In this document: positions 13,329-61,571 of the stretch, piece by piece
How the letters are laid out: every line of letters begins with the position of its first letter
How positions within the stretch are numbered: position 1 is the first letter of the stretch
Made by a program: the position numbers and the translations under genes
Assembly (NCBI GenBank): GCA_026387335.1
Contig: JAPLLX010000007.1
Location: 243-64,242 of the forward strand
Direction of reading: 5' to 3'
Length of the DNA stretch: 64,000 nt
Source of the DNA: Candidatus Omnitrophota bacterium
GTDB lineage: Bacteria > Omnitrophota > Gorgyraeia > Gygaellales > Profunditerraquicolaceae
The notes under the pieces: model-generated
What the model saw: only the letters and a program-made list of their open reading frames with translations
What the model was told of the DNA's origin: nothing
The model's database searches: none

Positions 13329-13333
13329 AAAAG

Positions 13334-14095: not shown

Positions 14096-14109
14096 CCGGA
14101 GGAATTAAA

Positions 14110-17095: not shown

Positions 17096-17096
17096 A

Positions 17097-17783: not shown

Positions 17784-18250
17784 GCGTAGGTTATGATATT
17801 CATCGTCTAGTCTCCGAGCGTAAATTATTTATCGGAGGCGTAGAGATACCTTACATCAAAGGCCTGTTGGGCCACTCCGACGCGGATGTTTTAATCCATG
17901 CGATATGCGACGCTCTCTTAGGCGCTATAGCCGAAAAAGATATCGGCGAGCTCTTCCCGGACACTGACCCAAAATACCAGGGAATTTCCAGCTCGGAATT
18001 ATTAAAAGTAGTTTTAGAATTGGTGCGTAAAAAAGGCTATCAAGTTTCTAACTTGGACACGGTTATAATCGCCGAAGAGCCGAAGTTCGCGCCGTTTAAG
18101 AATAGGATCCAGGAATCTTTAAGCAAGATCATGAATATTGATAAAGACCGCGTGGGCCTAAAGGCTAAGACAAATGAGGGTTTGGGAGAGTTGGGGAGGA
18201 AAGAGGGGATTGCTTGTTACGCCACTGTTCTAATTAAGAAGGAGAGCTAA
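17768..18250 (+). CDS. ispF: 2-C-methyl-D-erythritol 2,4-cyclodiphosphate synthase
   Basis: RIGVGYDIHRL, GHSDADVLIHAICDALLGA motifs. Confidence 0.95.
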   Translation: METRIGVGYDIHRLVSERKLFIGGVEIPYIKGLLGHSDADVLIHAICDALLGAIAEKDIGELFPDTDPKYQGISSSELLKVVLELVRKKGYQVSNLDTVIIAEEPKFAPFKNRIQESLSKIMNIDKDRVGLKAKTNEGLGELGRKEGIACYATVLIKKES

Positions 18251-18928
18251 ATGGTTTGCCTTACACAGATATTATTATTTATTTTAGGGTTAATTATTCT
18301 TAAAAATATCGTGATTGCGATTTTTTTCTATTCCGAGATAAAAACAGCTCAGAAAAAGGATCCTGCCGCCAAGAGCTTTATTGAAATCTTACTTTTGTAT
18401 CAGGGTTTACACGCTTTAGTAGCTTATCGGACGGCAAATTTCTTCTATAGAATAAGATTTTTCTTTTTAGCCCGCTTTATTTCGCAGCTGGCGCGTTGGG
18501 CTACCGGTATTGAAATACACCCCGGAGCCAAAATCGGTAAAAGCCTTTTTATCGACCACGGTATGGGTGTGGTAATAGGCGAAACCGCGATAATCGGCGA
18601 TGGTGTGTTATTGTATCAGGGGGTTACTTTAGGCGGCACAGGCCTGGAGCACGGTAAACGGCATCCTACAATAGGAAATAATGTAGTTATCGGCGCGGGC
18701 GCCAAAGTTTTAGGAAATATAACCATTGGAGATAGTTCTTATATAGGTTCTAATGCCGTAGTCATAAAAGATGTCCCGGCAAATTCTACGGTTGTGGGGG
18801 TCCCGGGAAGAATAACCAAACAGGAAGGCAAGAAAATTGATATCAGCCTTGACCATATCCATGTGTTGGATCCCGTAATGCAGTTGATTGAAGAGTTGGA
18901 GCAGCGGATTAAAAAGTTAGAAAAATAA
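18251..18928 (+). CDS. cysE: Serine O-acetyltransferase (hexapeptide repeat)
   Basis: [14 protein letters not shown], then [26 protein letters not shown] hexapeptide repeats. The first ~20 aa are very hydrophobic, so an in-frame GTG at 18311 may be the real start. Confidence 0.85.
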
Positions 18929-18943
18929 ACTGCCTATCTTTTG

Positions 18944-34016: not shown

Positions 34017-35258
34017 GTGTTAAAAAAAAAGATAATAGTAGTCGGCGCAGGCCCAGCCGGAATGATGGCTGCGATAAAAGCGGGCTCACTAGCTCAAGAA
34101 GTAATCCTCGTTGATAAAAATCCATCCTTAGGCAAGAAACTCCTCCTTAGCGGTAAAGGCCGCTGTAATTTAACCAACGCCAGCGATCTAGACTCATTCT
34201 TAAAAAGATTCTCCAAAAACGGGGAATTCTTAAGGGATGCCTTTAAGAAATTCTTTAACCAGGAGCTGATGGATTTTTTCCAGGAGAGAGGGCTGCCCCT
34301 AAAAGTAGAGAGGCAGTTACGCGTTTTTCCGGTTACGGATAGTTCAAACAGCATCGTAAATACGCTGGAGAAAGAATTGCTTAAGCAGAATGTAAAGATC
34401 AAGCTTAATTCCAAAGCAACAGATGTGTTGGTAGAAAATAATCAGATCAAGGGGCTGTATTTAGAGGAGGAAGAGTTTATTCCTTGTGACAAAATAATTT
34501 TAGCCACCGGAGGCGTCTCTTATAGTTTTACCGGCTCAACCGGCGAGGGTTTGGAATTGGCCAAAAAAACAGGCCATAATATTGTAGCCTTACGGCCGGG
34601 CCTGGTCCCGTTAGTCGTGAGTGAAAAATATATTAAAACATTAGAAGGCCTGACCTTAAAAAACATCCGCCTTAAATTTGGCGCGGGCAGAAAGGAGATT
34701 ATCTCCGAGGTCGGGGAGTTGTTATTTACAAGTTTTGGGATATCCGGACCGTTAGTCCTTACTCTCAGCGCTAAGATAGCGAATTGGTTGGCTGACAAGA
34801 AGGAAGTCTTTGCCGATATAGATTTAAAACCGGGGTTAACGGTTGAGCAACTCTCTGCCCGTTTTTTGCGGGAATTTAAGACTAACGCCAAGAAGGGGAT
34901 TAAAAATGTTATGAAGAGTTTATTGCCTATAAAGTTGATTGATTTGTTTATGGAGTTGGCAAAAATAAATCCGCATAAAAAGGCCAATCAGGTTACGCAA
35001 AAGGAACGCGAGACGCTTGTCACTTTGCTTAAGGGCTGGCGTTTAAATATCTCCGGCACAAGGCCGATAGAAGAGGGGATGGTCACCCAGGGCGGAGTTT
35101 CTTTAAAAAACATCAACCCGCGTACTATGGAATCGCGGATAATTAAGGGGTTGTATTTTTGCGGAGAGATGATTGATGTGGACGCGGATACCGGAGGATT
35201 TAACCTTCAGGCGGCATTCTCTACCGGATACTTAGCAGGAGAAAGCGCGGCATTATGA
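34017..35258 (+). CDS. FAD-dependent oxidoreductase, HI0933/BaiN family
   Basis: GAGPAGMMAA dinucleotide motif, GKGRCNLTN, ATGG.SY..TGSTG.G, GG.NLQ.AFSTG C-terminus. Confidence 0.85.
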   Translation: MLKKKIIVVGAGPAGMMAAIKAGSLAQEVILVDKNPSLGKKLLLSGKGRCNLTNASDLDSFLKRFSKNGEFLRDAFKKFFNQELMDFFQERGLPLKVERQLRVFPVTDSSNSIVNTLEKELLKQNVKIKLNSKATDVLVENNQIKGLYLEEEEFIPCDKIILATGGVSYSFTGSTGEGLELAKKTGHNIVALRPGLVPLVVSEKYIKTLEGLTLKNIRLKFGAGRKEIISEVGELLFTSFGISGPLVLTLSAKIANWLADKKEVFADIDLKPGLTVEQLSARFLREFKTNAKKGIKNVMKSLLPIKLIDLFMELAKINPHKKANQVTQKERETLVTLLKGWRLNISGTRPIEEGMVTQGGVSLKNINPRTMESRIIKGLYFCGEMIDVDADTGGFNLQAAFSTGYLAGESAAL

Positions 35259-36601
35259 AAAATATATATTTAGCTTCTCACTCTAAGGCTCGCCAAAAAT
35301 TATTAAAATCACTGGGCCTGAAATTTAAAGTCCTTCCCGCTAGAATTAAAGAGAGAAGGAGCGCAAAAGGGATATCCTATGCTGACCTTGTAAAGCTAAA
35401 CGCGCGCCAGAAAGCCGAAACTGCTTCCCGAAAAGTAAAGTCCGGGATTATTATTGCCGCGGATACGATTCTGGTCCAGGACGGCAAAATATATGGTAAG
35501 CCCAAAGACTTAAAAAGCGCCCGGCGCATGCTTAAAACAATATCCGCCAAACCGCAAACTGTCTATACCGGTATTGCCGTAATAAAAAAGGGAGAGGGCA
35601 GGGAAAAAATACTGCTGGATTACGAAAAGACCGATGTTTATATGGATAAGTTAAGCGATAAAGATATAGATGCTTATTTTAAGAAAGTTTCTCCTTTAGA
35701 TAAAGCCGGAAGTTTTGACATCCAGGCCAAAGGCGCTCTTTTTATCCGGGGGGTGAGGGGCTGTTTCTATAATGTGGTAGGTCTGCCTTTAAGAAAACTT
35801 TATACGATGTTTAAAAAACTGGATATAAGGTTATATTTGTTTTTTCTGGCTCTGGTTTTCTTAGCCGGTTGTTCTACGGAATATAATATCGTTACCGGAG
35901 AACAGGAGGTCTACTACTATAGCACGGATAAAGAAGTCCAGATGGGCCAGGCTGTTGCCCGGGAAGTGGCCAAGCAATATAAATACACCGATGACCCGCT
36001 GTTACAAAAGCGGGTTGAGGATATCGGTAAGAAAATAGTCGCGGTGAGCGATAGGAAAGAAATAGATTACCATTTTTTTGTATTAGACGAGGATGAGGTA
36101 AATGCCGTTTCCCTGCCCGGAGGTTATGTTTATATATTTAAGGGGTTAGTGGATAAAGTAGCTAACGATGATGAGCTGGCCGGAGTCATAGCCCACGAAG
36201 TCGGCCATATAGTCGCTCGCCACAGCATCAAGAAACTGCAGGCCCTTCAGGGTTATTCCATATTAAGAATACTTGTAGCGGCAGCCCCGTCTTCGGGCGA
36301 AGTAGGAAATGCCGCGGATGTCGCTTTTACCGAGCTGCTTCTAGGCTATTCCCGGGAAGATGAACTGCTGGCTGATCAGTTAGGCGCTCGGTACATAAAA
36401 TCAGCCGGGTATGACCCGCATGCTATGATTTCATTTTTACAGAAACTTCAGGAGGTCAATCGCCGAAGGCCTCTTCAGCCAAAATCATATTATAAAACTC
36501 ACCCCTATACTCCGGACAGGATCAGGGTAGTCAAGGAAGAATTGGGAGAGCGGATTGATTTTGACGATTACATTAATATTGAACAAAATAAACATAAGTA
36601 G
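35255..36601 (+). CDS. maf: In-frame fusion: Maf nucleoside-triphosphate pyrophosphatase (aa 1-~190) plus M48 metalloprotease lipoprotein (BepA/YfgC-like). An internal ATG at 35807 precedes a lipoprotein signal peptide.
   Basis: Maf motifs (LASHSKARQKLL, IIAADT, AGSFDIQ). Then MFKKLDIRLYLFFLALVFLAGC (lipobox LAGC) and HEVGHIVARH (HExxH). No stop codon separates the two parts. Confidence 0.8.
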   Translation: MKNIYLASHSKARQKLLKSLGLKFKVLPARIKERRSAKGISYADLVKLNARQKAETASRKVKSGIIIAADTILVQDGKIYGKPKDLKSARRMLKTISAKPQTVYTGIAVIKKGEGREKILLDYEKTDVYMDKLSDKDIDAYFKKVSPLDKAGSFDIQAKGALFIRGVRGCFYNVVGLPLRKLYTMFKKLDIRLYLFFLALVFLAGCSTEYNIVTGEQEVYYYSTDKEVQMGQAVAREVAKQYKYTDDPLLQKRVEDIGKKIVAVSDRKEIDYHFFVLDEDEVNAVSLPGGYVYIFKGLVDKVANDDELAGVIAHEVGHIVARHSIKKLQALQGYSILRILVAAAPSSGEVGNAADVAFTELLLGYSREDELLADQLGARYIKSAGYDPHAMISFLQKLQEVNRRRPLQPKSYYKTHPYTPDRIRVVKEELGERIDFDDYINIEQNKHK

Positions 36602-39169: not shown

Positions 39170-40120
39170 ATGCTTAAGCCGATAATTAACTGGCTGGTAT
39201 TTGATGTTCTTAAAATGCGGCAAGGGTCTTTGTTTTCCGAAGCCCTGAACTTTTTCCTCTATGACACGATTAAGATATTCTTTTTGTTGACCGGCATTAT
39301 CTTTGTTGTCGCCATCATCAGGACGTTTTTCTCGCCAGAGAAAACCCGGGCGATTTTAAGCAAAAGCCAAGGCTATTGGGGCAACGTGTTGGCGGCGCTT
39401 TTAGGAATCGTGACGCCTTTTTGCTCGTGTAGCGCAGTCCCCTTATTCTTGGGTTTTTTAGAGGCAGGGGTTTCATTGGGAGTAACGTTTTCTTTTTTAG
39501 TGGCTTCGCCTATGATTAATGAAGTGGCGCTGGTTATGCTATGGGGGCTTTTTGGTTGGAAAATATCCTTTATCTATATCGGTAGCGGGCTGGCTATAGC
39601 TATTTTTTCAGGAATAGTCATCGGTAAACTTAAAGTTGAAGGATTAGTTGAACAACTCGCTCATGTCAAGCAGGGGTGCTGTGCTCAATCAATCAGTATG
39701 GCGTTTAAAGATAGGATTGCTTACGCTAAGGAATATACGGGGAATATTTTGAAGAGTATATGGCTGTTTGTAATTATTGGCATTGGTTTGGGGGCGTGGA
39801 TTCATGGATATGTGCCGGCAGATTTTCTGGCGAGGTATGCAGGCAGGGAAAATTGGTTTGCCGTGCCTTTGGCGACGCTTATCGGCATTCCTCTTTATTC
39901 TAACGCAGCCGGGGTTATCCCTCTGGTCAGCGCATTAACCGAAAAAGGCGTAGCTATGGGAACGGCGCTTTCTTTTATGATGGCAGTAACTGCGCTTTCG
40001 CTGCCAGAATTTATAATACTGCGAAAAGCTATGAAATTGAAGTTGCTTGTAATTTTTGCTTCGGTCGTGGGTATAGGAATTATATTTACGGGATATATGT
40101 TTAATTTTATTCTCAAATAA
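39170..40120 (+). CDS. COG0701/ArsP-like permease
   Basis: Polytopic protein with the vicinal-Cys motif TPFCSCSAVPLF characteristic of this permease family. Adjacent to an ACR3 gene. Confidence 0.7.
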   Translation: MLKPIINWLVFDVLKMRQGSLFSEALNFFLYDTIKIFFLLTGIIFVVAIIRTFFSPEKTRAILSKSQGYWGNVLAALLGIVTPFCSCSAVPLFLGFLEAGVSLGVTFSFLVASPMINEVALVMLWGLFGWKISFIYIGSGLAIAIFSGIVIGKLKVEGLVEQLAHVKQGCCAQSISMAFKDRIAYAKEYTGNILKSIWLFVIIGIGLGAWIHGYVPADFLARYAGRENWFAVPLATLIGIPLYSNAAGVIPLVSALTEKGVAMGTALSFMMAVTALSLPEFIILRKAMKLKLLVIFASVVGIGIIFTGYMFNFILK

Positions 40121-40142
40121 AAAAGTATAAGGAGAGATAGCG

Positions 40143-41186
40143 ATGGCGGAATGTAACGTGAAACAGTTATCTTTTTTAGACAGGTTTCTGACGCTCTGGA
40201 TATTCCTGGCGATGGCCTTGGGAGTTCTGCTTGGCTATTTATACCCGCCGATAGTCAGTTTTTGGAATAGATTTCAGGTAGGAACGACCAATATCCCTAT
40301 TGCCGTAGGCCTTATTTTAATGATGTATCCGCCGCTGGCCAAGGTTAAATACGAAGAAATGGGGGATGTCTTCCGCAATACCAAAATACTAACGCTTTCA
40401 CTTATTCAAAACTGGATAATCGGGCCTGTCCTGATGTTTATTCTGGCCGTGGTATTTTTGAGGGGGTATCCTGAATACATGGCAGGCTTGATTATGATCG
40501 GCCTGGCGCGTTGTATCGCTATGGTCATTGTGTGGAATGAACTGGCCAAAGGTGACACTGAATATTGCGCTGGTCTGGTGGCTTTTAATTCCGTGTTTCA
40601 GGTGCTTTTTTATTCCGTATATGCCTGGATTTTTATTACAGTATTACCGAGCTGGCTGGGACTTAAAGGGTCAATAGTGCGGGTTACTATCGGACAGATC
40701 GCCTGGAGTGTTTTTATTTATCTGGGGATACCGTTTCTGGCCGGGATTATCAGCCGTTTCAGCTTGATTAAACTTAAAGGCCAAGATTGGTATGAACAGA
40801 AGTTTATTCCCCGGATCAGCCCCTTGACGCTTATCGCGCTTCTTTTTACCATAGTGGTTATGTTTTCTTTGAAAGGCGAATATATCGTCAAGATTCCGCT
40901 GGATGTGGTGCGTATAGCGATTCCGCTGGTCATCTATTTCATAGTTATGTTTTTGGTCTCTTTTTATATGGGCAAGAAAGCAGGAGCGGATTATTCCAAG
41001 ACAGCCACGCTTTCTTTTACCGCAGCCAGTAATAATTTTGAGTTAGCGATTGCGGTGGCAGTCGCTGTTTTCGGGATTAATTCCGGCGCTGCGTTTGCCG
41101 CGGTGATAGGGCCGTTAGTAGAAGTTCCTGTCCTGATAAGCCTGGTGAATGTCGCGCTCTACTTTAAAAAGAGGCATTTCGCATGA
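40143..41186 (+). CDS. acr3: ACR3 family arsenite efflux transporter
   Basis: [14 protein letters not shown]-terminus, GLARCIAMV (conserved Cys), 10-TM BART-superfamily pattern, [10 protein letters not shown] motif. Confidence 0.85.
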
Positions 41187-41203
41187 AGGGGTGTTTTTAA
41201 AAC

Positions 41204-41231
41204 TTGACAAATATAGAAAGAATGGTATATT
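41204..41231 (+). promoter_or_regulatory. Sigma-70-type promoter (TTGACA-N16-TATATT) upstream of the riboswitch leader
   Basis: TTGACA at 41204-41209 and TATATT at 41226-41231. The flanking ACTTGACAAATA is identical to the promoter at 62032. Confidence 0.5.
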
Positions 41232-41309
41232 TAATCCAATAAGGCACAAAGAAGTGTCAAAGATAATACAAAGGCGTTCTTTAATGGGAGCGTCTTTTTG
41301 TTTTATATA

Positions 41310-41452
41310 CACGCTTAATCCTCTTTAATGTTAATTAAATAGAATTAAAGGGGAGCGGGGGAACCAAGTTTTTGGGGCGAATATCTAGAGTTCTAGATTA
41401 GGGATTCTCAATCCGAGCCCGGCAGCTAACCTCGTCAGCATATTTTTGAGGA
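41310..41452 (+). promoter_or_regulatory. c-di-AMP riboswitch (ydaO/kimA class)
   Basis: Contains the conserved blocks ACGCUUAAUC, GGAGCGGGGGAACCAA, GGGGCGAAU and CCGAGCCCGGCAGCUAACCUCGUCAGC, in the order and spacing of the ydaO motif as I recall its consensus (...CCGAACCCGNCAGCUAACCUCGUAAGCG). Confidence 0.8.
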
Positions 41453-41456
41453 ATGT

Positions 41457-41488
41457 AACCAGAGAAAACATTCTCTGGTTTTTTATTT
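41457..41488 (+). terminator. Intrinsic terminator (expression platform of the riboswitch)
   Basis: Perfect 10-bp stem AACCAGAGAA/TTCTCTGGTT (41457-41466 / 41471-41480), loop AACA, then TTTTATTT. Confidence 0.85.
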
Positions 41489-41543
41489 CAGAAGGAAATA
41501 CACCCGCCACTCCGATATGGCGGGGTGTAATCAGGGGGCTTAT

Positions 41544-44500
41544 ATGAAAATATCAGAATTAGTTTCTAAGGACTCGGTCAATATTAATTTAAAATCCCGG
41601 ACTAAAAAAGCGGCTATAGCTGAAATTATTGACCAGCTATATAAAACCCGCAAGATCAAGAATAAAGAAGAAGTCTTAAAAGCCATCTTAAAAAGAGAAA
41701 GCGAGAATTCTACCGGTATAGGGCATGGCCTTGCTATACCGCATGCCAGGATTGAGAATTTAAGAGAGGCAATGGTTTTTATAGGCATTTCCAAACATGG
41801 CATAGATTTTTCTTCCTTGGATGCGAAGCCAGTGTATATAGTTGTGCTTTTCCTTACTCCACTTTTCGATACCGCTACTCATCTAAAGATTCTATCCAGG
41901 CTTGGCGTAATGTTTAACGATGGGCTGCTCTTGGGAGAACTGAGGAGCGCTTCATCCAGCAATGAACTATACTTTATTCTTAAACAGGGAGATCTTGAAA
42001 GAGATGATTTTCGCGCCTTAAATAAAGAAGAGATATTTCTTGAATTAGAAACCAGCGCTGATGGGCTTACTGAGACAGAAGCAAAAAGTCGCTTAGGAGA
42101 ATATGGTTCCAATAGGTTAAAAAGAATAAAAAAGACTCCCCTTCTAGTGCGTTTTGTCTCTCATTTTACGAATCTTCTCGCTATTTTAATGTGGCTTGGT
42201 AGCGGTTTATCTTTTTGGGCTCAGATGCCGGAAGCCGGATGGGCATGCATAGCGGTAATTTTTATTAATGCGATTTTTAGCTTTTGGCAGGAATTTAAAG
42301 CAGAAAAAGCGATAGAGGCATTAAAGGGACTGCTACCTTCATATGCTCGTGTAATCAGGGGAGGGGAAGAGAAGAAGGTGCTTTTAAGCGACCTGGTGCC
42401 GGGAGATATTATATTTATTGAAGAAGGGGATAGTATTCCAGCAGATGCCAGGATTATCGAGGCTCAGGAGTTAAGAGTTAACAATAGCGCATTTTCCGGA
42501 GAATCTAAGCTTTCGCATAAAATAGCCGAAGGATTTGAAACAAAAGGTGATTTTCTATGGTTAGAAATACCAAATCTTGTATTTGCAGGTACTAGCGTTG
42601 CCTCAGGTATGGGTAAAGCCGTAGTCATTGCTACCGGCATGGGCACAGAAATAGGCAAGATCGCCTATTTGACCCAAACCATTAAAGAAGAATTGAGCCC
42701 TTTGCAGAGAGAGGTAAATCGTATTAGTAAATTGATTGCCGCAATTTCGGTTATTATGGGTTTCGCCTTCTTTTTTGTAGGCTTAGCATTTACTAAGATG
42801 ACCCTTATCGCTTCAACAATGTTTGCCATAGGAATTATCTTAGCCAATGTTCCGCAAGGATTGATGCCTACGCTTACTTTGGCGCTTTCCATGGCTGTGC
42901 AGAGGATGGCAAGGAAACATGCGCTTATTAAGAAGCTTTCTTCAGTAGAAACTCTAGGTTGCACTAGCGTCATCTGTACCGATAAAACAGGTACGCTTAC
43001 TACTAATCAGATGAGTGTCAGGAAAATCTGGATTAATCAGAAGGTGATTGAGATTTCCGGGACCGGTTATGAACCAGTCGGTTCATTTAATTTTGAAGGA
43101 AAAGAGCTTCCTCCAGATTCATTTACAGAGGATAATCTTGAGCTTCTATTGAGGATAGGAAGTTTATGTAATACGGCAAAGTTAGTTGTGCCTTCAGAAT
43201 CTCAAAACTATTGGAGTATTATTGGGGATCCTACAGAAGGGGCTTTATTGACCTTAGCCCAGAAAGCAGGCTTCAATAGTGAGCAAGAACGCAAGGCGCA
43301 TATTCTAGAAAAACGTTTTCCTTTTGATTCGGTCCGTAAAAGAATGAGTTGTATAAATAAGCTCGCTAACGGGGAGTTAAATATCTTTGTTAAAGGAGCG
43401 CCTAAAGAACTCCTGGATCTTTCTACCAAAATAATTCTTGGTCATAAGATTGTTGAATTAACAGCCGAGATAAGGACAGAAATTATTTCCAGAATAAATA
43501 ATTTTGCAGAAGATGGCCTGCGCGTTCTCGGATTTGCTTATCGTAAATTTGAGGGCGAGAATGTTGCAGAGGTTACCGTTCAAACAGTAGAAAATGATTT
43601 AATCTTTATCGGAATAACGGCTATGTATGATCCTCCTCGCCCGGAAGTTAAAGATGCTGTTGCTATTTGCAAAAGAGCGGGCATACGGGTAGTTATGATT
43701 ACAGGCGATTATCAAGTCACAGCTTTGTCCATTGCTAAACAGGTTGGTATTGTTAACTCTGAAGATGCAATTGTTATTACCGGAGCGGAGTTTTCTGATA
43801 TAGATGACGATCAGCTAAAAGAAAGGTTACTTAAGCAAGAGGTTGTATTTGCTCGAGTCAATCCCGAACATAAATTGAGAGTTGTGAATATATTCAAAGA
43901 TTTGGGTAATATCGTAGCTGTTACCGGAGACGGAGTTAACGATGCCCCGGCACTTAAGCGAGCAGATATCGGAGTAGCTATGGGTTTACGCGGGACAGAC
44001 GTGGCTAAAGAATCGGCAGAAATGATACTAACTGACGACAATTTTGCCAGCATTGTTTCGGCTATTGAGGAAGGCCGTGCCGTATTTGACAATATCAAGA
44101 AATTCATTACTTATATTTTTGCGCATCTTGTCCCTGAGGCAATACCGTATATTTTCTATGCCTTGCTTAAAATCCCTGTACCTATTACGGTAATGCAAAT
44201 ATTGGCAATTGATTTGGGTACAGAAACTATTCCCGCGCTTGCATTAGGCGTTGAAAAGCCTGAGCCGGGTATTATGGAACTTGCGCCAAGGCCGAGAAAA
44301 AAGGGGGTTATTGATAAGATAGTGCTTTTCCGCGGTTACATAGTCTTGGGGCTACTTAATACAGCCGCGGTGTTAAGCGCTTATTATTTTGTTCTTTTTC
44401 AAGGAGGATGGAAGCCGGGAATGCAGCTTGAGCCTAATGACACGACATTTACAAATCCTCTGCATCTTAAGGCGATGACTATTGTTTTTGTCGGTATAGT

Positions 44501-44765
44501 GGTTATGCAAATTGCCAACATTTTTGCCTGCCGTAGCGAAAAATACTCAGCATTTAAATTAGGTTTCTTCAATAACAAGCTTATTCTTTGGGGAATTCTC
44601 TTTGAGCTTGTTTTTGCTTCCGTAATAATATATACGCCCTTTGCTCAAAAGATATTTAATACGATTGGCTTGGGATGGCAGGATTGGGGGATATTGTTTG
44701 CATTTATGATTGTTGTATTCTTCCTAGAAGAATTACGAAAAAAGATGTCTGTATTAAAAAGGTAG
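41544..44765 (+). CDS. PTS EIIA(Ntr)-like domain fused to a type-II (Na,K/Ca-like) cation-translocating P-type ATPase
   Basis: N-terminal ~150 aa carry the PTS_EIIA type-2 pattern (RESENSTGIGHGLAIPHAR; His codon at 41742-41744). ATPase motifs are DKTGTLT (Asp codon 42981), TGDGVNDAPAL and TGES-like SGES. TM4 reads ANVPQGL instead of PEGL. ATG at 41544 has an AGGGGG RBS. Confidence 0.85.
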   Translation: MKISELVSKDSVNINLKSRTKKAAIAEIIDQLYKTRKIKNKEEVLKAILKRESENSTGIGHGLAIPHARIENLREAMVFIGISKHGIDFSSLDAKPVYIVVLFLTPLFDTATHLKILSRLGVMFNDGLLLGELRSASSSNELYFILKQGDLERDDFRALNKEEIFLELETSADGLTETEAKSRLGEYGSNRLKRIKKTPLLVRFVSHFTNLLAILMWLGSGLSFWAQMPEAGWACIAVIFINAIFSFWQEFKAEKAIEALKGLLPSYARVIRGGEEKKVLLSDLVPGDIIFIEEGDSIPADARIIEAQELRVNNSAFSGESKLSHKIAEGFETKGDFLWLEIPNLVFAGTSVASGMGKAVVIATGMGTEIGKIAYLTQTIKEELSPLQREVNRISKLIAAISVIMGFAFFFVGLAFTKMTLIASTMFAIGIILANVPQGLMPTLTLALSMAVQRMARKHALIKKLSSVETLGCTSVICTDKTGTLTTNQMSVRKIWINQKVIEISGTGYEPVGSFNFEGKELPPDSFTEDNLELLLRIGSLCNTAKLVVPSESQNYWSIIGDPTEGALLTLAQKAGFNSEQERKAHILEKRFPFDSVRKRMSCINKLANGELNIFVKGAPKELLDLSTKIILGHKIVELTAEIRTEIISRINNFAEDGLRVLGFAYRKFEGENVAEVTVQTVENDLIFIGITAMYDPPRPEVKDAVAICKRAGIRVVMITGDYQVTALSIAKQVGIVNSEDAIVITGAEFSDIDDDQLKERLLKQEVVFARVNPEHKLRVVNIFKDLGNIVAVTGDGVNDAPALKRADIGVAMGLRGTDVAKESAEMILTDDNFASIVSAIEEGRAVFDNIKKFITYIFAHLVPEAIPYIFYALLKIPVPITVMQILAIDLGTETIPALALGVEKPEPGIMELAPRPRKKGVIDKIVLFRGYIVLGLLNTAAVLSAYYFVLFQGGWKPGMQLEPNDTTFTNPLHLKAMTIVFVGIVVMQIANIFACRSEKYSAFKLGFFNNKLILWGILFELVFASVIIYTPFAQKIFNTIGLGWQDWGILFAFMIVVFFLEELRKKMSVLKR

Positions 44766-44796
44766 AATTGATGCGATGATAAAAAGGAGGGGAAAG

Positions 44797-45162
44797 ATGA
44801 AAAAGACTATTTATGTTTTGTTCGTGTTTGGCTTTGTTTGTTCTCTCTCTCTCGTTAAATCGACTCTAGCGGTCGTGCCTGCCCCGATTTCCCCGCAAGA
44901 CTTGGGAATTGTGACTGTTACCGGGAAAATCGAATCCATATCCAAGGAATGTTCTTCAGAAGGGGTGATGGCAGCGATCACTATTGTTGATAAGATTGGG
45001 AAAAGGGTGGTCGTAGAAGTCAAGGCGGATACGGTGATTTATGACGAAGGCGGGAAAACTATCGCTTTGGATAAGGTTCAAAAAGGCGATAAAGTCATCA
45101 TTGAATACCGAGAAGCGAGAAAGACGGTAGAGAAAGCAGAATCCATCAAATTGACAAGATAG
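44797..45162 (+). CDS. Small secreted protein of unknown function
   Basis: AAGGAGG RBS and signal peptide MKKTIYVLFVFGFVCSLSLVKSTLA. ~95-aa mature part with no recognisable motif. Starts 32 nt after the ATPase stop. Confidence 0.6.
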   Translation: MKKTIYVLFVFGFVCSLSLVKSTLAVVPAPISPQDLGIVTVTGKIESISKECSSEGVMAAITIVDKIGKRVVVEVKADTVIYDEGGKTIALDKVQKGDKVIIEYREARKTVEKAESIKLTR

Positions 45163-45383: not shown

Positions 45384-46340
45384 ATGCCTTTAGAGCACTT
45401 TAAGATTACCGGGATTGCTGTATCCCAGATCTTCCTTCTGGCGGCCATGGGCTTTTTTTTGGTTAAAAGGAAGTTTCTGGAGGGCGCGGGGCTGGATGCT
45501 GTCAGTAATTTGGTTTTGGACGTTACCCTGCCGGTGCTTATTTTCTGCCAACTAATCAAGGATTTCTCTTTTCAGGCGTATCCGGACTGGTGGATTTTTC
45601 CCTTACTGAGTATTGGCGTTACGGTCATAGGTTTGGTTGTTGGGTTCTTGCTCCTGCCTTTGATAAAAGGAGAGCAGCATAAATTACAATTTTTAAGCCT
45701 GGTCGGGTTTCAGAATTCCGGATATTTACCTTTGGCGCTGGCAGCGGCTTTGCTTGCGCAAGGGGAATTAAACGCGATGTTTATCTATCTGTTTTTATTT
45801 CTCTGCGGGTTTAACCTGGTGATGTTTTCCGTCGGTGTGTACATATTGAATTTCCATAAAGAGAGAAAATTCGATTGGCAAAACTTTTTGAGTATGCCGG
45901 TTACGGTCACCTTATTTAGCCTGTTAATTATATTTTTTGGTTTAAATAAATTTGTTCCGGATGCCGTTATTAAGCCGTTAAGGATGCTGGGGGATAGCAC
46001 TCTGCCTTTAGCTATGCTGGTAGTGGGAGGAAACCTGGCTGAATTAAATCTTAAGAATATTAATAAGAGAGCGATTTCGCTGTTGATATTGGCAAAAATG
46101 ATTATTCTGCCTGCTATAGGCTTAGGCCTGATTATTGTTTTGGGCATCCCGAAGCTGATAGGTTTACTGATTCTTATCCAGCTGGCTATGCCATCGGCAG
46201 TGACTTTATCGGTAATCTTAAGAAACTATAAAAAAGAGGACCTTTTGGTGAGCCAGGGCATACTCCTTACGCATTTAGCCAGCGTAATCACTATACCCCT
46301 ATTTTTGATTTTATATTTTAGCCGGATTATGCTAAAATGA
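45384..46340 (+). CDS. AEC (auxin efflux carrier) family transporter
   Basis: ~10 TM segments with a two-repeat architecture typical of AEC/membrane transport family permeases. Assigned from overall pattern only. Confidence 0.65.
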   Translation: MPLEHFKITGIAVSQIFLLAAMGFFLVKRKFLEGAGLDAVSNLVLDVTLPVLIFCQLIKDFSFQAYPDWWIFPLLSIGVTVIGLVVGFLLLPLIKGEQHKLQFLSLVGFQNSGYLPLALAAALLAQGELNAMFIYLFLFLCGFNLVMFSVGVYILNFHKERKFDWQNFLSMPVTVTLFSLLIIFFGLNKFVPDAVIKPLRMLGDSTLPLAMLVVGGNLAELNLKNINKRAISLLILAKMIILPAIGLGLIIVLGIPKLIGLLILIQLAMPSAVTLSVILRNYKKEDLLVSQGILLTHLASVITIPLFLILYFSRIMLK

Positions 46341-46792
46341 GTAAAATTATCGCTTCTAATCATAAGGGTTACCGGGATTACGCGGTTATCGAATCTTTAG
46401 AGTGCGGTATAGAGCTAAAAGGAAGCGAAGTAAAATCCATCCGCCAGGGTTATATCAACTTGAATGATAGTTTTGCCCGCGTTGAAGAAGGCGAATTGAT
46501 TTTATATAACACGCATATAAATCCTTATACTGAAGCAAGTTATATGAATGTTGAGCCGACAAGAAAACGGCGGCTGCTTCTGCATAAGAACCAAATAGAT
46601 AAAATAGAGGGTAAGCTGACCCAAAAAGGGCTTACCTTGATTCCCTTAAAGGTATATTTTAATGCCAGAGGGTTTGTGAAACTGGAACTCGCTCTGTGTA
46701 AAGGAAAAAAACTCTACGACAAAAGAGATGATATCAAGCGCCGCGAATCGGATCTAACGCTGCGCAGGATCTTGAAAAACAGAAGGAAATAG
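46337..46792 (+). CDS. smpB: SsrA-binding protein SmpB
   Basis: NRKA-like start (NHKGYRDY), GIELKGSEVKS, LLLHK.QI motifs. tmRNA lies immediately downstream. Confidence 0.95.
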   Translation: MSKIIASNHKGYRDYAVIESLECGIELKGSEVKSIRQGYINLNDSFARVEEGELILYNTHINPYTEASYMNVEPTRKRRLLLHKNQIDKIEGKLTQKGLTLIPLKVYFNARGFVKLELALCKGKKLYDKRDDIKRRESDLTLRRILKNRRK

Positions 46793-47222
46793 GGGGTGAA
46801 TTGGGCTCGACTTAGGCCGTCGGGTAAGAGCAGCATGTCGCGGACGCATGGTTAGCCGCGTTAATAACCCGTGCACAATATAAACGCAAGAACAGTATCA
46901 AGTTCTATAGCAAACGAGAGATATAGTGTTGTTCCGCAAATCGGAATGCCTATGTCTTTTCCTGCTATGGCGTTAAAAGCCATTCCTTAATAAAATAAGG
47001 AATGCCTCAATCTGATCTGCCTAAGGGTTGGAATTGAGCGCTAATTTAGGCTGGTCTTCTGCTAGTTGCCTTGCGGCAGGGGATAAGAGCGGTAAAAGGC
47101 TGCGCTTTGCAAATCCTGCCCCGCAGGAGTTGCAAGAGCAAGTTTAAAATGCGGGGCTAAACATGTAGCGGCTTTTATTCGTTTGTTTAAGGACGCCGGT
47201 TCGATTCCGGCCACCTCCACCA
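46792..47222 (+). ncRNA. ssrA: tmRNA (ssrA)
   Basis: 5' GGGGGUGA..GGCUCGAC and a 3' tRNA-like end GGACGCCGGUUCGAUUCCGGCCACCUCCACCA. Internal tag frame ends in UAAUAA (46988-46993) at the top of a 9-bp hairpin. Confidence 0.9.
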
Positions 47223-55304: not shown

Positions 55305-55379
55305 GGTGGCTATAGCTCAATTGGTTAGAGCGTTAGACTGTGGCTCTAAAGGTTGCGGGTTCGATCCCCGTTAGCCACC
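55305..55379 (+). tRNA. tRNA-His (anticodon GTG) with encoded G-1
   Basis: G-GTGGCTA / GCTC-AATTGGTTA-GAGC / TTAGA-CTGTGGC-TCTAA / GCGGG-TTCGATC-CCCGT / TAGCCAC-C. Confidence 0.95.
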
Positions 55380-55434
55380 CATAACTTATTGTGCCACAAC
55401 GATTTACAACATTATTTGAAAATTATAAGAATCC

Positions 55435-58090: not shown

Positions 58091-58117
58091 ACCCAGCCAC
58101 GTAGACTGGGTTTTTTT
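58091..58117 (+). terminator. Intrinsic terminator separating the ORF6N remnant from the MazG/DUF2075/HNH module
   Basis: Stem ACCCAG/CTGGGT (58091-58096 / 58106-58111) followed by a T7 tract. Confidence 0.7.
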
Positions 58118-58142
58118 GTTTCACTTTAGAAAAGGAGTTTTG

Positions 58143-58490
58143 ATGAACGAAATGAAAGAAATTACTGAAAAAATCAAGAAATTTAGAGATGAGCGTGACT
58201 GGATGCAATTTCATGATCCTAAGAATATGGCTGTTTCAATAATACTCGAAGCTTCTGAGCTGCTTGAGCATTTTCAATGGAAAACTACCGAAGAAGTAGA
58301 AAGATATTCAAGGAAAAATCTCGCTGAGATTAAGGATGAAATTGCAGACATAGCCTTATATCTTTTTGAATTAGCCGATAATCTCGGTATCAATTTAATT
58401 GATGCGATGGATCAAAAACTTAAAAAAAATGAAATGAAATATCCGGTGGAAAAAGCTAAAGGAAAGCATACAAAATACAATAAGCTATGA
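58143..58490 (+). CDS. MazG-like all-alpha nucleoside-triphosphate pyrophosphohydrolase (DCTPP1/YpjD-like)
   Basis: F...RDW.QFH.PKN....I..EA.EL.E.FQW......E...EIADI..YL..LA pattern with EExxE/D metal motifs. AAGGAG RBS before ATG 58143. Its stop overlaps the next start (ATGA at 58487-58490). Confidence 0.8.
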   Translation: MNEMKEITEKIKKFRDERDWMQFHDPKNMAVSIILEASELLEHFQWKTTEEVERYSRKNLAEIKDEIADIALYLFELADNLGINLIDAMDQKLKKNEMKYPVEKAKGKHTKYNKL

Positions 58491-60865
58491 GACTCTATGA
58501 GGGGTCAATCAAGGAATTTTCGGAAGACGTAATACATAATCGTATCGCAGATATATTAAAAGATAACTTTCTCGCCTACTATAGAAGACCACCCTCAGAA
58601 CCAGAATATCGTTCCTGGCAGCAGTCACTAAATTTCCTAAATAACGCATTCACGTATTCAGATTTATTGAATAATAAAATAATAGTGGAGTATGAATTAC
58701 CATATTCAACTCGGCGCATCGATGTGTTGGTGTTTGGGAAGAATAATTCAAATAAGGATAGTGTTGTTTTAATGGAGTTAAAGCAATGGTCTAATGAACA
58801 TGTCTATGATTGTGAAAATGAAGGTAATGTAATAATAGATTTTCTTGGTAAGAGAGAGGTAGCTCATCCTTGTTTACAAGTTGAAGGATATCATTTTGAT
58901 TTATTAGATTTTCTGTTGATTTTTAATAGTGATGACGCAGTGCAGCTAAATTCTTGCACATATTGTCACAATTATACTAAGCAAAAAGAAAACATACTCT
59001 CGCTCCCCAAATTCCATAAATTCACCAAGGCTTTTCCTCTGTTTCTCAAAGAAGATGTCAGAGAATTGGGCCTTTATTTGCAGGAGAGATTAAAGAATAG
59101 TGACGGGCTAGAAGTCTTTAGTCGTTTTTTAAATAGCCCTGTTCGACCTTCGAAAAGATTACTAGATCACACTGGCGATATGATTCATAAGCAGCAAATA
59201 TTTACGCTTATTGATGATCAAATCGCTGCTTATAATGCGATTATTAGCAAAGCTAAGCAGTTAACTAAGACAAGTACAAAGTCTATTATTGTTGTAAAGG
59301 GTGGTCCTGGAACAGGCAAGTCAGTAATTGCATTAGAAGTTATGGGCGAGCTGATGCGTCAGGGTAAGGTTGTATATCATGCTACCGGTTCATCCGCATT
59401 TACAAATACATTGAGAAAAATTGTTGGACGTAGAGCATCAAATCTCTTCAAATTCTTTTTTAACTTTACGCAGCACAAGGAGAACGAAATCGATGTTCTG
59501 ATATGCGATGAGGCCCATAGGATTAGGTCGGATAGCAATGATTATGGGGTGCCTTCTAAATTTAAATCAAAAAACCCTCAAATAGATGATCTTATAAGGC
59601 CCGCAAAGTTATCGATATTTTTTATAGATGAATTCCAGATTGTCCGTCCAAAGGAGATTGGTAGTGCTGAATTAATAAAAAGTTCAGCCGCTAAATTTGG
59701 CGTAAATGATAAAGACATTGTAGAATTCGAACTTAGGACGCAGTTCCGTTGTTCCGGGTCAGATGCATATTTACAGTGGTTAGACAAGCTACTGGAGATT
59801 AGAGAGTCTGATATAGATATTTTTGATGCAAAAATGGAGTTTAGAATTTTTGAAACTCCAGTAGATTTAAAAAGAGCAATTGATGAGAAAAATAGACACA
59901 AGGAGAATTTAGCTAGAATTGTTGCTGGTTTCTGTTGGAAATGGAGTGAACCGAATCCAGACGGTTCATTAGTAAAAGATGTTCAAATAGGTGACTTTCA
60001 AATGCCCTGGGAGAAGAAGGATGAATTTTGGAAGTGGGCTACTGATAAGAGTGGTATGGAGCAGGTTGGGACAGTCTATACAGCTCAAGGTTTTGAATTT
60101 GACTATATAGGTGTAATCTTTGGAGACGACCTCGTTTGGCGCAAAGATAAAGGTTGGATTAGTATTCCTGAGAATTCTTTTGATAAACAGGTTTTAAGAG
60201 GGAATCAAAAGCTAACTGATCATCTTAAACATGTTTATAGAGTGTTGATGTCGCGCGCTCATAAGGGAGTTTATTTGTATTTCATGGACAAAGAAACAGA
60301 AATGTTTTTTAGGACTAAGATTGAAAGCAGGGATGGCGCTTTGATGTTTTCTGATATTGTTAAAGAGGATGAAAAGCAGTCTAAAGAGCCAGTGCCGACG
60401 ATCCCGGAAAATCTGCAGTTTAGAGATTATCTCCCTATTTTATCACTTGAAGCGGTTGCAACGTCATTCGGTAAAGAAACACAGGTTGAACAAGAACCGA
60501 TTGGTTGGATCAAGGCCGATATCCCTAGAACTTTGAATAAAGACATGTTTGTTGCGAAAGTGGTAGGTAAGTCAATGGAACCGACTATTCCTGATGGAAG
60601 CTATTGCGTATTTCGCTTTGACAAAGGAGGGACCAGGAATGGATTAGCTGTCCTTGTGGAGTGTCATTTAATTTCTGACCCTGAAACGACGAGGCAGTTT
60701 ACAATAAAGCGGTATAAAAGCGAGAAAGAATATTTTGACGATGGGACATGGAGACATAAGAAAATAATTCTTTCTCCTGATAATAATGATTTTAAAGATA
60801 TCGTTTTGGAAGATGTGCCCGCTATCGAATTTCGAGTTGTAGCGGAGTTTATGTGTGTTTTATAA
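58487..60865 (+). CDS. DUF2075-type protein (N-terminal PD-(D/E)xK-like nuclease plus P-loop SF1-like helicase/ATPase) with C-terminal S24 LexA/UmuD-type peptidase domain
   Basis: N-terminus has SE.E.RSWQQSL and RRIDVLVFG...VLMELKQW (D...ELK). Walker A GGPGTGKS (aa 272-279), Walker B/DEAH ICDEAHR, helicase C-terminal motif TVYTAQGFEFDY. C-terminal aa ~645-792 have VVGKSMEPTIPDGSY (Ser codon 60572-60574) and FTIKRY (general-base Lys). Confidence 0.8.
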   Translation: MRLYEGSIKEFSEDVIHNRIADILKDNFLAYYRRPPSEPEYRSWQQSLNFLNNAFTYSDLLNNKIIVEYELPYSTRRIDVLVFGKNNSNKDSVVLMELKQWSNEHVYDCENEGNVIIDFLGKREVAHPCLQVEGYHFDLLDFLLIFNSDDAVQLNSCTYCHNYTKQKENILSLPKFHKFTKAFPLFLKEDVRELGLYLQERLKNSDGLEVFSRFLNSPVRPSKRLLDHTGDMIHKQQIFTLIDDQIAAYNAIISKAKQLTKTSTKSIIVVKGGPGTGKSVIALEVMGELMRQGKVVYHATGSSAFTNTLRKIVGRRASNLFKFFFNFTQHKENEIDVLICDEAHRIRSDSNDYGVPSKFKSKNPQIDDLIRPAKLSIFFIDEFQIVRPKEIGSAELIKSSAAKFGVNDKDIVEFELRTQFRCSGSDAYLQWLDKLLEIRESDIDIFDAKMEFRIFETPVDLKRAIDEKNRHKENLARIVAGFCWKWSEPNPDGSLVKDVQIGDFQMPWEKKDEFWKWATDKSGMEQVGTVYTAQGFEFDYIGVIFGDDLVWRKDKGWISIPENSFDKQVLRGNQKLTDHLKHVYRVLMSRAHKGVYLYFMDKETEMFFRTKIESRDGALMFSDIVKEDEKQSKEPVPTIPENLQFRDYLPILSLEAVATSFGKETQVEQEPIGWIKADIPRTLNKDMFVAKVVGKSMEPTIPDGSYCVFRFDKGGTRNGLAVLVECHLISDPETTRQFTIKRYKSEKEYFDDGTWRHKKIILSPDNNDFKDIVLEDVPAIEFRVVAEFMCVL

Positions 60866-60875
60866 TTTCTAAATA

Positions 60876-61571
60876 ATGTTTAAAGCCGGTGATGTAATTT
60901 CATACATTGAAATGTGCCAAGAAGAAGGTATAAGTCTTCAAAGAGGAATGAACTTTCGACTTAAAGGAAGACACAGTGTAATATTGATGAGTCTCAGACG
61001 CAATGCTCCATATGCTGATAAGGTTGAAGATAATGGCAAGACATTAATATACGAAGGTCATGATATCCCTCGGTTTAATAGAGCTCAAGATTCAAAGCTG
61101 GTTTCTCAACAAATGCAGAATCCCGGAGGTAGTTTAACTCAGAATGGGTTTTTTTATAAAGCAGCGCATGATTACAAAAATAAGAAGTCTGATGCAGAGC
61201 TAGTCAAGGTATATGAAAAAATTCATTCAGGAATATGGGCTTATAACGGTTTATTTAAACTAGTTGATTCGTGGCAAGAAGAATCGAATAAAAGAAAAGT
61301 ATTTAAATTCAGACTTGAAATAGATAAAATAAATTCTAAGGGCAAACAGCCAGAAAATTTTGATTTGGATCGTAACAGATTAATACCTGCATCTGTAAAG
61401 CTAGCGGTTTGGAAGAGGGATAAGGGGAAGTGTACTAAATGCGGCAGCCCTGATAATTTACATTTCGACCACATAATTCCTTATTCAAAAGGCGGGTCTT
61501 CTTTAGTTGCAGAAAACATTCAGTTGTTATGCGCAAGACATAATATTGAAAAGCGAGATAGGATTGAATAA
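60876..61571 (+). CDS. SRA (YDG)-like domain fused to HNH nuclease: type IV (modification-dependent) restriction endonuclease candidate
   Basis: N-terminus GMNFRLKGRHSVILMSLRRNAPYADKVEDNGKTLIYEGHD and VKVYEKI..GIWAYNGLFKLVDSWQEE..KRKVFKFRLE parallel the SRA blocks (GIHG..GAYSLVL.GGY.DD.D.G....YTGSGG; VRV.R.....YDGIYKVV.YW.E.G..G..V.RY.L.R). C-terminus CTKCG..DNLHFDHIIPYSKGG......NIQLLCARHN is an HNH motif. Confidence 0.75.
   Translation: MFKAGDVISYIEMCQEEGISLQRGMNFRLKGRHSVILMSLRRNAPYADKVEDNGKTLIYEGHDIPRFNRAQDSKLVSQQMQNPGGSLTQNGFFYKAAHDYKNKKSDAELVKVYEKIHSGIWAYNGLFKLVDSWQEESNKRKVFKFRLEIDKINSKGKQPENFDLDRNRLIPASVKLAVWKRDKGKCTKCGSPDNLHFDHIIPYSKGGSSLVAENIQLLCARHNIEKRDRIE

Follow-up and report, generated by a model that had tools for sequence, protein, structure and literature searches.

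Introduction

Which signal governs the expression of a cation pump that carries a phosphotransferase system (PTS) domain of the EIIA family in the same polypeptide? The question is raised by a locus in a 64,000-nt stretch of DNA (hereafter the window) from a metagenome-assembled genome (MAG) of Candidatus Omnitrophota (contig JAPLLX010000007.1, assembly GCA_026387335.1), where a gene downstream of acr3 encodes a fusion of EIIA to a P2-type ATPase. A first-pass annotation of this DNA had placed a riboswitch of the ydaO class, whose ligand is cyclic di-AMP (c-di-AMP), in the spacer between the two genes, followed by an intrinsic terminator, and had suggested an OFF switch. Our analysis makes it highly probable that a c-di-AMP riboswitch of the OFF type controls the gene for the EIIA-fused pump by means of this terminator, with a role in K+ handling as the most likely one for the pump.

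The pump protein is 100% identical to an NCBI protein (P0001, 1073 aa) from 'MAG: Candidatus Omnitrophica bacterium', and its nearest relatives in species-representative genomes come from MAGs of Omnitrophota and Phycisphaerae/Planctomycetota. We fetched 80 loci encoding homologues of the pump (L-numbers denote loci) and scanned them with Rfam. A covariance model, R1, was built from the aptamers of those loci that bore an RF00379 match, and further loci were found in metagenomes by a scan with the 18-nt P5-P6 pattern of the aptamer.

Identity and conservation of the aptamer

A cmscan search of the full window against Rfam 15 gave a single riboswitch match, to RF00379 (c-di-AMP riboswitch, ydaO/yuaA), on the forward strand at 41302-41455. 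The match scored 83.6 bits (E 5.6e-18; gathering score 38) and was found again when the search was repeated on a 500-nt region (E 4.4e-20). It was untruncated, covering model positions 1-134 of 134, and its sole large departure from the model was a P2 hairpin longer by 28 nt. All four conserved blocks quoted in the first-pass annotation were present at the places given for them (Table 1), and the ydaO-class assignment was borne out by the Rfam score.

The predicted helices were also assessed by comparison of 17 aptamers. Standard pairs occupied 87.9% of the cells at paired positions, compared with 41-53% when the 3' partners were slid by 1-3 columns, and changes on both sides were seen in 21 of the 34 aptamer pairs. 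None of 500 shuffles reached the observed values, and covariation in support of the fold is thus strong. The covariation was carried by P1, P2 and P6, while P3, P4 and P5 were uninformative because they are nearly invariant; P7 was partly misaligned between clades. The fitting of the alignment to the model favours structure, but the same conclusion follows from the slid controls and, independently, from the Rfam scores.

In addition to these helices, the P7 loop was complementary to the 3' tail in all 21 aptamers compared. The two strands covary and fall into three types, UUCUCAA/UUGAGGA being that of the window, CUUUCAA/UUGAAAG that of Phycisphaerae and CUUCUUCG/CGAAGGAG that of L058. We take this pairing to be the pseudoknot of the class, as seen in published crystal structures. 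Since bulges shift the register between leader types, a column-wise covariation count was impracticable both for the pseudoknot and for the candidate antiterminator described below, and the energies of cognate and non-cognate duplexes were compared instead. For the pseudoknot these were -6.0 and -4.75 kcal/mol, respectively, a small gap overall.

The association of the aptamer with the pump gene is conserved. RF00379 was found on the same strand, just upstream of the homologous gene, in L001, L002, L004-L012 and L027, with scores of 67-94 bits. R1 added aptamers at L081 and L083, as well as the 3' end of an aptamer at the contig edge of L082, and the pattern scan of metagenomes added the L109 aptamer. 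Counting the loci with upstream DNA at hand, the riboswitch was present at 17 of 18 loci of one clade of pumps, which we call the 'PQGL' clade. The one locus of the clade without it is L003, in which the pump gene begins about 85 nt after a gene for an H+-pyrophosphatase. R1 also detected a c-di-AMP aptamer (55.7 bits) on the minus strand of an Anaerolineales contig (L058, 1003-1136), near an unfused homologue of the pump; it lies on the strand opposite to that homologue and presumably serves a divergent gene.

Since every testable feature of RF00379 membership was found, the RNA of the window can be placed in this known class as a new member. Judged by its sequence, the riboswitch is a genuine and ordinary-looking representative of the c-di-AMP class, and would be expected to bind this ligand, of which members of the class take up two molecules.

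A terminator next to the aptamer

A terminator hairpin of 10 perfect pairs follows the aptamer immediately, and both the hairpin and its U-tract (41457-41488) were found exactly as first described. The hairpin alone folds at -12.6 kcal/mol. Of 13 full leaders of relatives, 12 have a hairpin and U-run immediately after the aptamer, with a stem sequence that varies by lineage (ACCAGAGAA type in Omnitrophota, AACUGCCG type in Phycisphaerae); L004 has no obvious U-run after its aptamer. The ribosome-binding site (RBS) and start codon expected beyond the terminator were likewise in place, and the start agrees with the 1073-aa length of P0001 and with all homologues. The ATG at 41544 is preferred to an in-frame ATG upstream, at 41517, because the identical NCBI protein has 1073 aa. 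The spacer after acr3 was put at 330 nt in the first-pass annotation; the distance from the acr3 stop (41186) to the ATG is in fact 357 nt. A GC-rich hairpin in the 5' untranslated region (UTR), between the terminator and the RBS, is missing from L081 and L083 and has a homologue just before the RBS of kdpF in L108.

We infer that binding of c-di-AMP leads to termination at about 41481-41488, and that the element is thus an OFF switch, because characterised members with the same layout, namely those of the Bacillus thuringiensis kdp operon and of Dehalobacter, are OFF switches. A candidate antiterminator could be formed between the aptamer tail and the terminator loop with its 3' arm (Table 1), and its tail strand overlaps the strand used in the pseudoknot. 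The tail and the terminator loop co-vary among leaders (AGAGAAC/GUUCUCU, AGAGAAUGC/GCAUCCUCU, AGAGAAUAC/GUGUUCUCU and GAGAG(G)CC/GGCUCUC). It is plausible that the antiterminator is blocked for as long as the tail is held in the pseudoknot, which would parallel the description given for Dehalobacter.

Two other candidates were considered and rejected. A search for a thermodynamic antiterminator by constrained folding gave a best terminator-free structure that was 9 kcal/mol worse than aptamer plus terminator and relied on G-U pairing of GGGGGAACC with the U-tract. Sequestration of the 5' arm of the terminator (GAGAA) by the P7 loop (UUCUC) was set aside as the complementarity is missing in leaders of the L001/L027/L095 type.

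The Phycisphaerae leaders (L005-L012) contain additional elements. A hairpin after the terminator, CCUUUGCCC...AAAGG (for example at 1575-1642 in L008), includes the RBS-like AAAGG, and GGGCAA of the aptamer tail is complementary to UUGCCC of this same hairpin. Transcriptional and translational control could be combined in these leaders.

The EIIA-fused pump

The Pfam domains of the open reading frame (ORF) downstream of the riboswitch agree with its description as an EIIA::P-type ATPase. The EIIA domain scored 108 bits with PTS_EIIA_2, for which the cut-off is 27, and the ATPase part is complete, with matches to Cation_ATPase_N, E1-E2, Cation_ATPase together with HAD, and Cation_ATPase_C. The protein belongs to a family of EIIA-fused P2-type ATPases of more than 100 clusters at 68-100% identity, many of which are annotated at JGI as 'potassium/sodium efflux P-type ATPase' or 'Ca2+-transporting ATPase'.

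Among the NCBIfam models, the highest score was obtained with type IIC X,K (TIGR01106), at 611 bits against a cut-off of 946, and the second model, for PMR1-type Ca ATPases, was nearly equal to it at 608 bits. Scores with the Ca2+-ATPase models SERCA/PMR1 (TIGR01116, TIGR01522) stayed below the cut-offs (608 vs 798 and 570 vs 703 bits), and the KdpB equivalog gave 102 bits against a cut-off of 528, with no kdpA or kdpC adjoining the pump gene. By sequence the pump therefore resembles type IIC most closely, although it would not count as a member.

The closest solved structures are the alpha subunits of Na,K- and H,K-ATPases (about 519 bits over residues 160-1067), and the ion-site residues were read from HMMER alignments to these chains. 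The pump shares DKTGT, the PE of transmembrane helix (TM) 5 and the DLGT of TM6 with them (PDB 8d3u, 3b8e, 5ylu). It differs from Na,K-ATPase at TM4 (VPQGL instead of VPEGL, E to Q), TM5 (YIFAHLVPE instead of YTLTSNIPE, TSN to AHL), TM6 (DLGTE instead of DLGTD, D808 to E) and TM8 (Q..N instead of Q..D, D926 to N). In addition, the M7-M8 loop, which binds the beta subunit, is shorter, and an N-terminal EIIA domain is present.

The AHL/E/N signature is common to the 120 closest protein clusters and to unfused Firmicute homologues, while more distant homologues from archaea and Actinomycetota retain the SN/D site of the Na,K type. The change from E to Q in TM4 occurs only in the riboswitch-bearing clade (L001-L013, L027 and L081-L083). 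In the fetched loci, no riboswitch was found upstream of the PEGL EIIA-fused pumps of Fibrobacter, Syntrophorhabdales, spirochaetes and others, nor upstream of the unfused homologues of Firmicutes, Actinomycetota and Chloroflexota.

The histidine motif of EIIA, G.G.AIPH, is kept in most homologues and reads GHGLAIPH in the window protein. The domain scored 76 bits with the PtsN subfamily model (TIGR01419, cut-off 139) and 93 bits with that of FruA-IIA (cut-off 103.5). Like PtsN, which controls KdpD/KdpFABC, TrkA and YcgO (PMC9239096, PMC11808508), it belongs to the Fru/Mtl/Ntr family of EIIAs and has a histidine that can be phosphorylated; unlike PtsN it is not a free protein but is covalently joined to the transporter, as in LacS of streptococci, where an EIIA domain fused to a transporter provides a precedent (PMC10710835). 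No HPr or Enzyme I was found in the window or the related loci.

A 128-aa ORF with a signal-peptide-like N-terminus begins 10 nt after the pump gene and may be co-transcribed with it. It has no Pfam or NCBIfam match, and it is not regarded as a conserved partner because a homologue was found in L081 only. In two Omnitrophota loci, a membrane H+/Na+-pyrophosphatase gene stands directly upstream of the EIIA pump (L003, 604-2871; L009, 102-2408).

Genomic context of the riboswitch

The genes that accompany this riboswitch in related loci point to K+. The order in L008 is riboswitch, a 450-aa gene of the TrkH family (PF02386, 189 bits) and, 6 nt on, the pump. Riboswitches with P5-P6 of the window type also precede kdpF and kdpA in L095 and L102, kdpF in L108, and an APC-family, KimA-like permease in L085; in the sister loci, the Pfam scores were 543 and 427 bits for KdpA and 36 and 33 bits for KdpF. 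The set of trkH, kdpFA and the KimA-like permease is the canonical c-di-AMP K+ regulon.

Of these loci, L108 (contig Ga0247842_10000028, 1-2109) allows a direct comparison, since it is syntenic with the window at 39650-41560 through arsP, acr3, the promoter, the leader hairpins and the aptamer. Identity between the two is about 95% as far as the 3' strand of P1. Beyond the terminator, the place of the EIIA pump is taken in L108 by a small ORF, kdpF and the beginning of kdpA, and the likeness resumes at the 5'-UTR hairpin and the RBS just before the start codon. One leader therefore drives either KdpFABC or the EIIA pump in close relatives, and the comparison of the two sequences suggests that the coding region was swapped beneath a single leader. 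A 26-aa hydrophobic ORF, MD(I/W)L...C(S/T/D)(K/R)V, which has no Pfam match, lies between the terminator and kdpF in three kdp operons (Table 1).

A further pump, 91% identical to that of the window, adjoins genes for a DUF4118-HisKA kinase and an OmpR-type response regulator, an architecture like that of KdpD/E. PtsN-type EIIA proteins regulate K+ transport in Proteobacteria (PMC9239096, PMC11808508). Taken together, the trkH operon, the sister riboswitches of kdpFA and permease genes, the swap in L108 and the KdpD/E-like neighbours favour a role in K+ transport.

The protein is thus probably a pump for K+ or for cation homeostasis. More specifically, it is quite possible, and for us the preferred reading, that it carries out ATP-driven K+ uptake or K+-coupled exchange, is induced at low c-di-AMP and is gated by phosphorylation of EIIA. 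It may work like Kdp, as the swap suggests, yet it is no Kdp. We also put forward, as a tentative proposal, that the EIIA pumps with the Q/AHL/E/N site represent an unrecognised bacterial K+-uptake or exchange pump that can replace KdpFABC at the same locus, with transcription controlled by c-di-AMP through the riboswitch and activity by PTS phosphorylation of EIIA.

A model for regulation and its alternatives

In the model that we propose, transcription from the promoter at 41204-41231 would yield an mRNA of one or two genes whose 5' UTR includes the aptamer. Binding of c-di-AMP would lock P1 and P3 as well as the pseudoknot that the P7 loop forms with the 3' tail, and the tail would become unavailable, so that the 10-bp hairpin at 41457-41480 could form, RNA polymerase would terminate in the U-tract and the gene would be off. 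Low c-di-AMP, which signals K+ shortage or hyperosmotic stress in studied bacteria, would release the tail for pairing with the loop and 3' arm of the terminator, resulting in read-through and expression of the pump. The pump would then import K+, or exchange a cation for K+, and be functionally interchangeable with KdpFABC, while its activity could additionally be tuned via phosphorylation of the EIIA histidine.

Several of our observations weigh against one or another step of this model, and they are discussed here along with the alternatives on which they bear. With respect to the switch itself, the terminator is far more stable than the helix of the candidate antiterminator (-12.6 vs -4.9 kcal/mol), and the separation of cognate from non-cognate duplexes of this helix is modest (means of -7.2 and -5.9 kcal/mol). 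The minimum free energy of the leader, with aptamer and terminator, is -53.2 kcal/mol, and that of the best terminator-free structure is -43.9 kcal/mol. Thus, when the region was folded with and without constraint, an aptamer-like fold and the terminator did appear in the unconstrained minimum, but a convincing antiterminator alternative did not. An aptamer that controls translation, or acts as an ON switch, would not call for a strong antiterminator, and would accommodate both the leader without an obvious U-run (L004) and the extra hairpin of the Phycisphaerae relatives, which can sequester the RBS. We nevertheless regard such a mechanism as improbable, given that the RBS of the window lies 78 nt past the aptamer and beyond a canonical terminator, that a terminator immediately follows the aptamer in nearly all relatives, and that the characterised members with this layout are all OFF switches.

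With respect to the ligand, a motif scan and tblastn, which covered the window and 795 kb of related loci, detected no gene with a diadenylate cyclase (DAC) domain; the tblastn query was a DAC domain of CdaA that was validated against PDB entries of CdaA (266 bits). The first-pass annotation had noted a 'Bacillus-like' radA neighbourhood that lacks disA. The gene order at 10123-20338 (clpC-like, mlaE/F/D as an insertion, radA at 14724-16130, a gene for a TRAM-domain protein, ispD, ispF, a cysE-like hexapeptide transferase gene and cysS) does resemble that of Bacillus, but in synteny only, the host being an Omnitrophota MAG, and the gene after radA indeed encodes the TRAM-domain protein and not DisA. 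The absence of a visible cyclase from this DNA, and two usually conserved positions that depart from the Rfam consensus (GGGGCGAAU for GGGGUGAAU and CCGAGCCCG for CCGAACCCG), would be compatible with a decaying relic that does not bind c-di-AMP, or with a binder of another ligand. This is very improbable in view of the full-length, high-scoring match kept in both Omnitrophota and Planctomycetota, the compensatory changes in P1, P2, P6 and the pseudoknot, and the presence of the same variant aptamers in front of kdp, trkH and the KimA-like permease gene, that is, of the canonical regulon.

A third point concerns the leader upstream of the aptamer, where a terminator-like hairpin (hairpin 2) stands between promoter and aptamer. 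L081, L083 and L108 share the -35 hexamer and its location with the window, and it is in these loci and the window only that the promoter lies about 75 nt before the aptamer, with both leader hairpins kept by stem-preserving changes. In most relatives, such as L001, L011, L095 and L085, an equivalent TTGACA promoter abuts the aptamer. In L083 the gene upstream of the leader is a different one, a tRNA gene with its own terminator, which indicates that hairpin 2 is part of the leader and not simply the terminator of acr3. Among its possible roles are those of a leaky terminator, of a second attenuator, and of an element for pausing or stability.

The order of promoter, two hairpins (the second with a U-run), aptamer and terminator raises the possibility of a leader with two inputs, in which the hairpins at 41243-41307 serve as a second attenuator or sensor in series with the c-di-AMP switch. 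The layout is kept in the window, L081, L083 and L108, one of them with a different upstream gene, and a natural Na+/c-di-AMP tandem is known in which each aptamer has its own terminator (PMC9337991). Still, this is unlikely, since the four examples are closely related and stand apart from most relatives in the position of the promoter, the roughly 30 nt before hairpin 2 are short for an aptamer, and hairpin 2, which includes 4 G-U pairs, may terminate weakly, cause pausing or affect the stability of the RNA. No Rfam family, including that of the Na+ riboswitch, matched the 75-nt leader or the surroundings of the terminator at E up to 10. Fragmentary matches to GibS, the Phe leader and lncRNAs in this region were dismissed as noise, all being far below their gathering scores.

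Finally, as regards the transported ion, the pump passes no NCBIfam subfamily cut-off, its ion site is without the TM4 glutamate and the TM5 Ser-Asn of Na,K-ATPase, and no conserved operon partner was found, the neighbours varying among yidC/mnmE, an ABC transporter, an H+-pyrophosphatase and acr3. The same switch might therefore serve a pump that exports Na+ or another cation (Ca2+, H+ or NH4+) under salt or osmotic stress, a less favoured reading but one to be taken seriously. Low c-di-AMP also accompanies hyperosmotic stress, so that the induction of a pump that expels Na+ would suit the regulon (PMC9337991). The 'potassium/sodium efflux' and 'Ca2+-transporting' names at JGI, the PMR1-type score close to that of type IIC, and the H+/Na+-pyrophosphatase genes directly upstream in L003 and L009 go in the same direction. 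Against export stand the locus-level swap with kdpFA and the co-operon with trkH, both of which point to K+ uptake, and the residues of the site: the Asp of Na+ site III in TM8 is Asn, Thr/Ser/Asn of TM5 are Ala/His/Leu, and the TM4 Glu is Gln across the riboswitch clade. The TM4 glutamate is an essential site-II ligand of Ca2+ in SERCA, and transport of Ca2+ by a pump with Gln at this position appears unlikely.

Relation to characterised systems

The closest known system is the kdp riboswitch of B. thuringiensis, in which the kdpFABC leader acts as a transcriptional OFF switch that is relieved as c-di-AMP falls under K+ limitation (PMC6488665). As in that leader, an RF00379 aptamer and an intrinsic terminator lie in the 5' UTR of a cation pump based on a P-type ATPase, and sister leaders of the window riboswitch precede kdpF-kdpA. 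Unlike there, the gene controlled in the window encodes a single-polypeptide P2-type pump with a fused EIIA domain, and the host belongs to Omnitrophota; the kdp association of the c-di-AMP riboswitch has been described as essentially restricted to Bacillales (PMC6488665).

The founding members of RF00379, the ydaO (kimA) and yuaA (ktrAB) leaders of Bacillus subtilis, also control K+ uptake (PMC7266159, PMC6488665). The window element has their core blocks, P1-P7 architecture and terminator-type expression platform, and it differs from them in the longer P2, the extra 75-nt structured leader upstream, the phylum and the class of gene controlled.

In the Na+/c-di-AMP tandem of Dehalobacter sp. 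CF, the c-di-AMP element is an OFF switch, and nucleotides of the pseudoknot and P1 of the aptamer were proposed to pair alternatively with the terminator (PMC9337991). The window resembles this tandem in having an aptamer apart from its terminator and an upstream element with its own terminator-like hairpin. In contrast, the upstream element of the window matches neither the Na+ riboswitch nor any other Rfam family, and the alternative pairing would involve the 3' arm of the terminator and not the 5' arm.

The first-pass annotation had considered a P-type ATPase an uncommon gene for this riboswitch. Our literature search supports this, as it returned no link between c-di-AMP riboswitches and P-type ATPases except Kdp, and the link seen here is conserved across the clade. 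The search also gave nothing on an EIIA-P-type ATPase fusion, or on c-di-AMP in Planctomycetes or Omnitrophota. Both the link and the lineage thus appear unreported; the full gene-association lists of the primary papers lay outside the search and may tabulate the link.

Features of the locus and of the window

The features of the locus are listed in Table 1.

Table 1. Positions of the regulatory elements, aptamer helices and coding regions (window coordinates unless a locus is named)
Feature	Position	Strand	Description
Promoter-like site, sigma-70 type	41204-41231	+	TTGACA, 16 nt, TG-TATATT; 11/12 consensus positions, extended -10 TG
Leader between promoter and aptamer	41243-41307	+	Lineage-specific; two hairpins
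Leader hairpin 1	41243-41258	+	Small
Leader hairpin 2	41270-41297	+	Terminator-like; 12 pairs, then TTGTTTTATA U-run
Conserved block	41311-41320	+	ACGCTTAATC
Conserved block	41352-41367	+	GGAGCGGGGGAACCAA
Conserved block	41374-41382	+	GGGGCGAAT
Conserved block	41413-41439	+	CCGAGCCCGGCAGCTAACCTCGTCAGC
P1	41312-15/41437-40	+	RF00379 aptamer
P2	41319-41354	+	RF00379 aptamer
P3	41355-60/41430-35	+	RF00379 aptamer
P4	41365-66/41373-74	+	RF00379 aptamer
P5	41375-77/41418-20	+	RF00379 aptamer
P6	41383-41398	+	RF00379 aptamer
P7	41401-41414	+	RF00379 aptamer
Pseudoknot partners	41405-41411/41446-41452	+	P7 loop UUCUCAA/3' tail UUGAGGA; 7 complementary pairs
Candidate antiterminator	41448-41456/41468-41475	+	Tail GAG(G)AAUGU/terminator loop and 3' arm ACAUUCUC
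Intrinsic terminator	41457-41480	+	AACCAGAGAA/TTCTCTGGTT; 10 perfect pairs, loop AACA; then TTTTATTT to 41488
GC-rich 5'-UTR hairpin	41500-41528	+	ACACCCGCC...GGCGGGGTGT; between terminator and RBS
RBS	41533-41538	+	AGGGGG; ATG at 41544-41546
Pump gene	41544-44765	+	1073 aa; EIIA::P2-type ATPase fusion
PTS_EIIA_2 domain (PF00359)	41559-41987	+	aa 6-148; 108 bits, cut-off 27
P2-type cation ATPase	42015-44744	+	aa 158-1067; PF00690, PF00122, PF13246, PF00702, PF00689
128-aa ORF	44776-45162	+	Signal-peptide-like N-terminus; 10 nt after pump gene
26-aa ORF, L108	1863-1943		Between terminator and kdpF
26-aa ORF, L102	546-623		Between terminator and kdpF
26-aa ORF, L095	~1336-1413	-	Between terminator and kdpF

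Some observations were made elsewhere in the window. A 431-nt tmRNA at 46792-47222 (Rfam 154 bits) exceeds the model by an insertion of about 76 nt, and ARAGORN reports none there; its start is the last base of the stop codon of smpB (ORF 46337-46792). A single ORF at 35255-36601 joins the domains of a Maf-like nucleotide pyrophosphatase and an M48 peptidase. A possible defence island at 58116-61571, which comes after a tRNA-His gene (55306-55380) and a gene for a TPR protein, encodes a MazG-like protein, a 792-aa protein of the Schlafen-group-3-helicase type with an S24 peptidase domain, and an SRA-HNH endonuclease. Among the related loci, a tandem glycine riboswitch of Thermoanaerobacterium butyriciformans (L034, 2001-2173, minus strand) adjoins an unfused pump homologue and points away from it.

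Implications

The riboswitch itself is of a textbook kind, and any annotation based on Rfam would find it. Its value lies in the functional label that it gives to a widespread and uncharacterised family of pumps, as it would place the EIIA-fused P2-type ATPases in the c-di-AMP regulon for osmotic and K+ homeostasis. The exchange of kdpFA for the pump under one leader turns this label into a concrete and testable prediction of the pump's role. The finding also points to signalling through c-di-AMP riboswitches in Omnitrophota and in Phycisphaerae (Planctomycetota), phyla that are not listed for this riboswitch in the literature searched. At the level of the single transporter, c-di-AMP signalling and the PTS would be joined in the control of one pump, and the upstream leader, with its hairpin and terminator, might add a third input.

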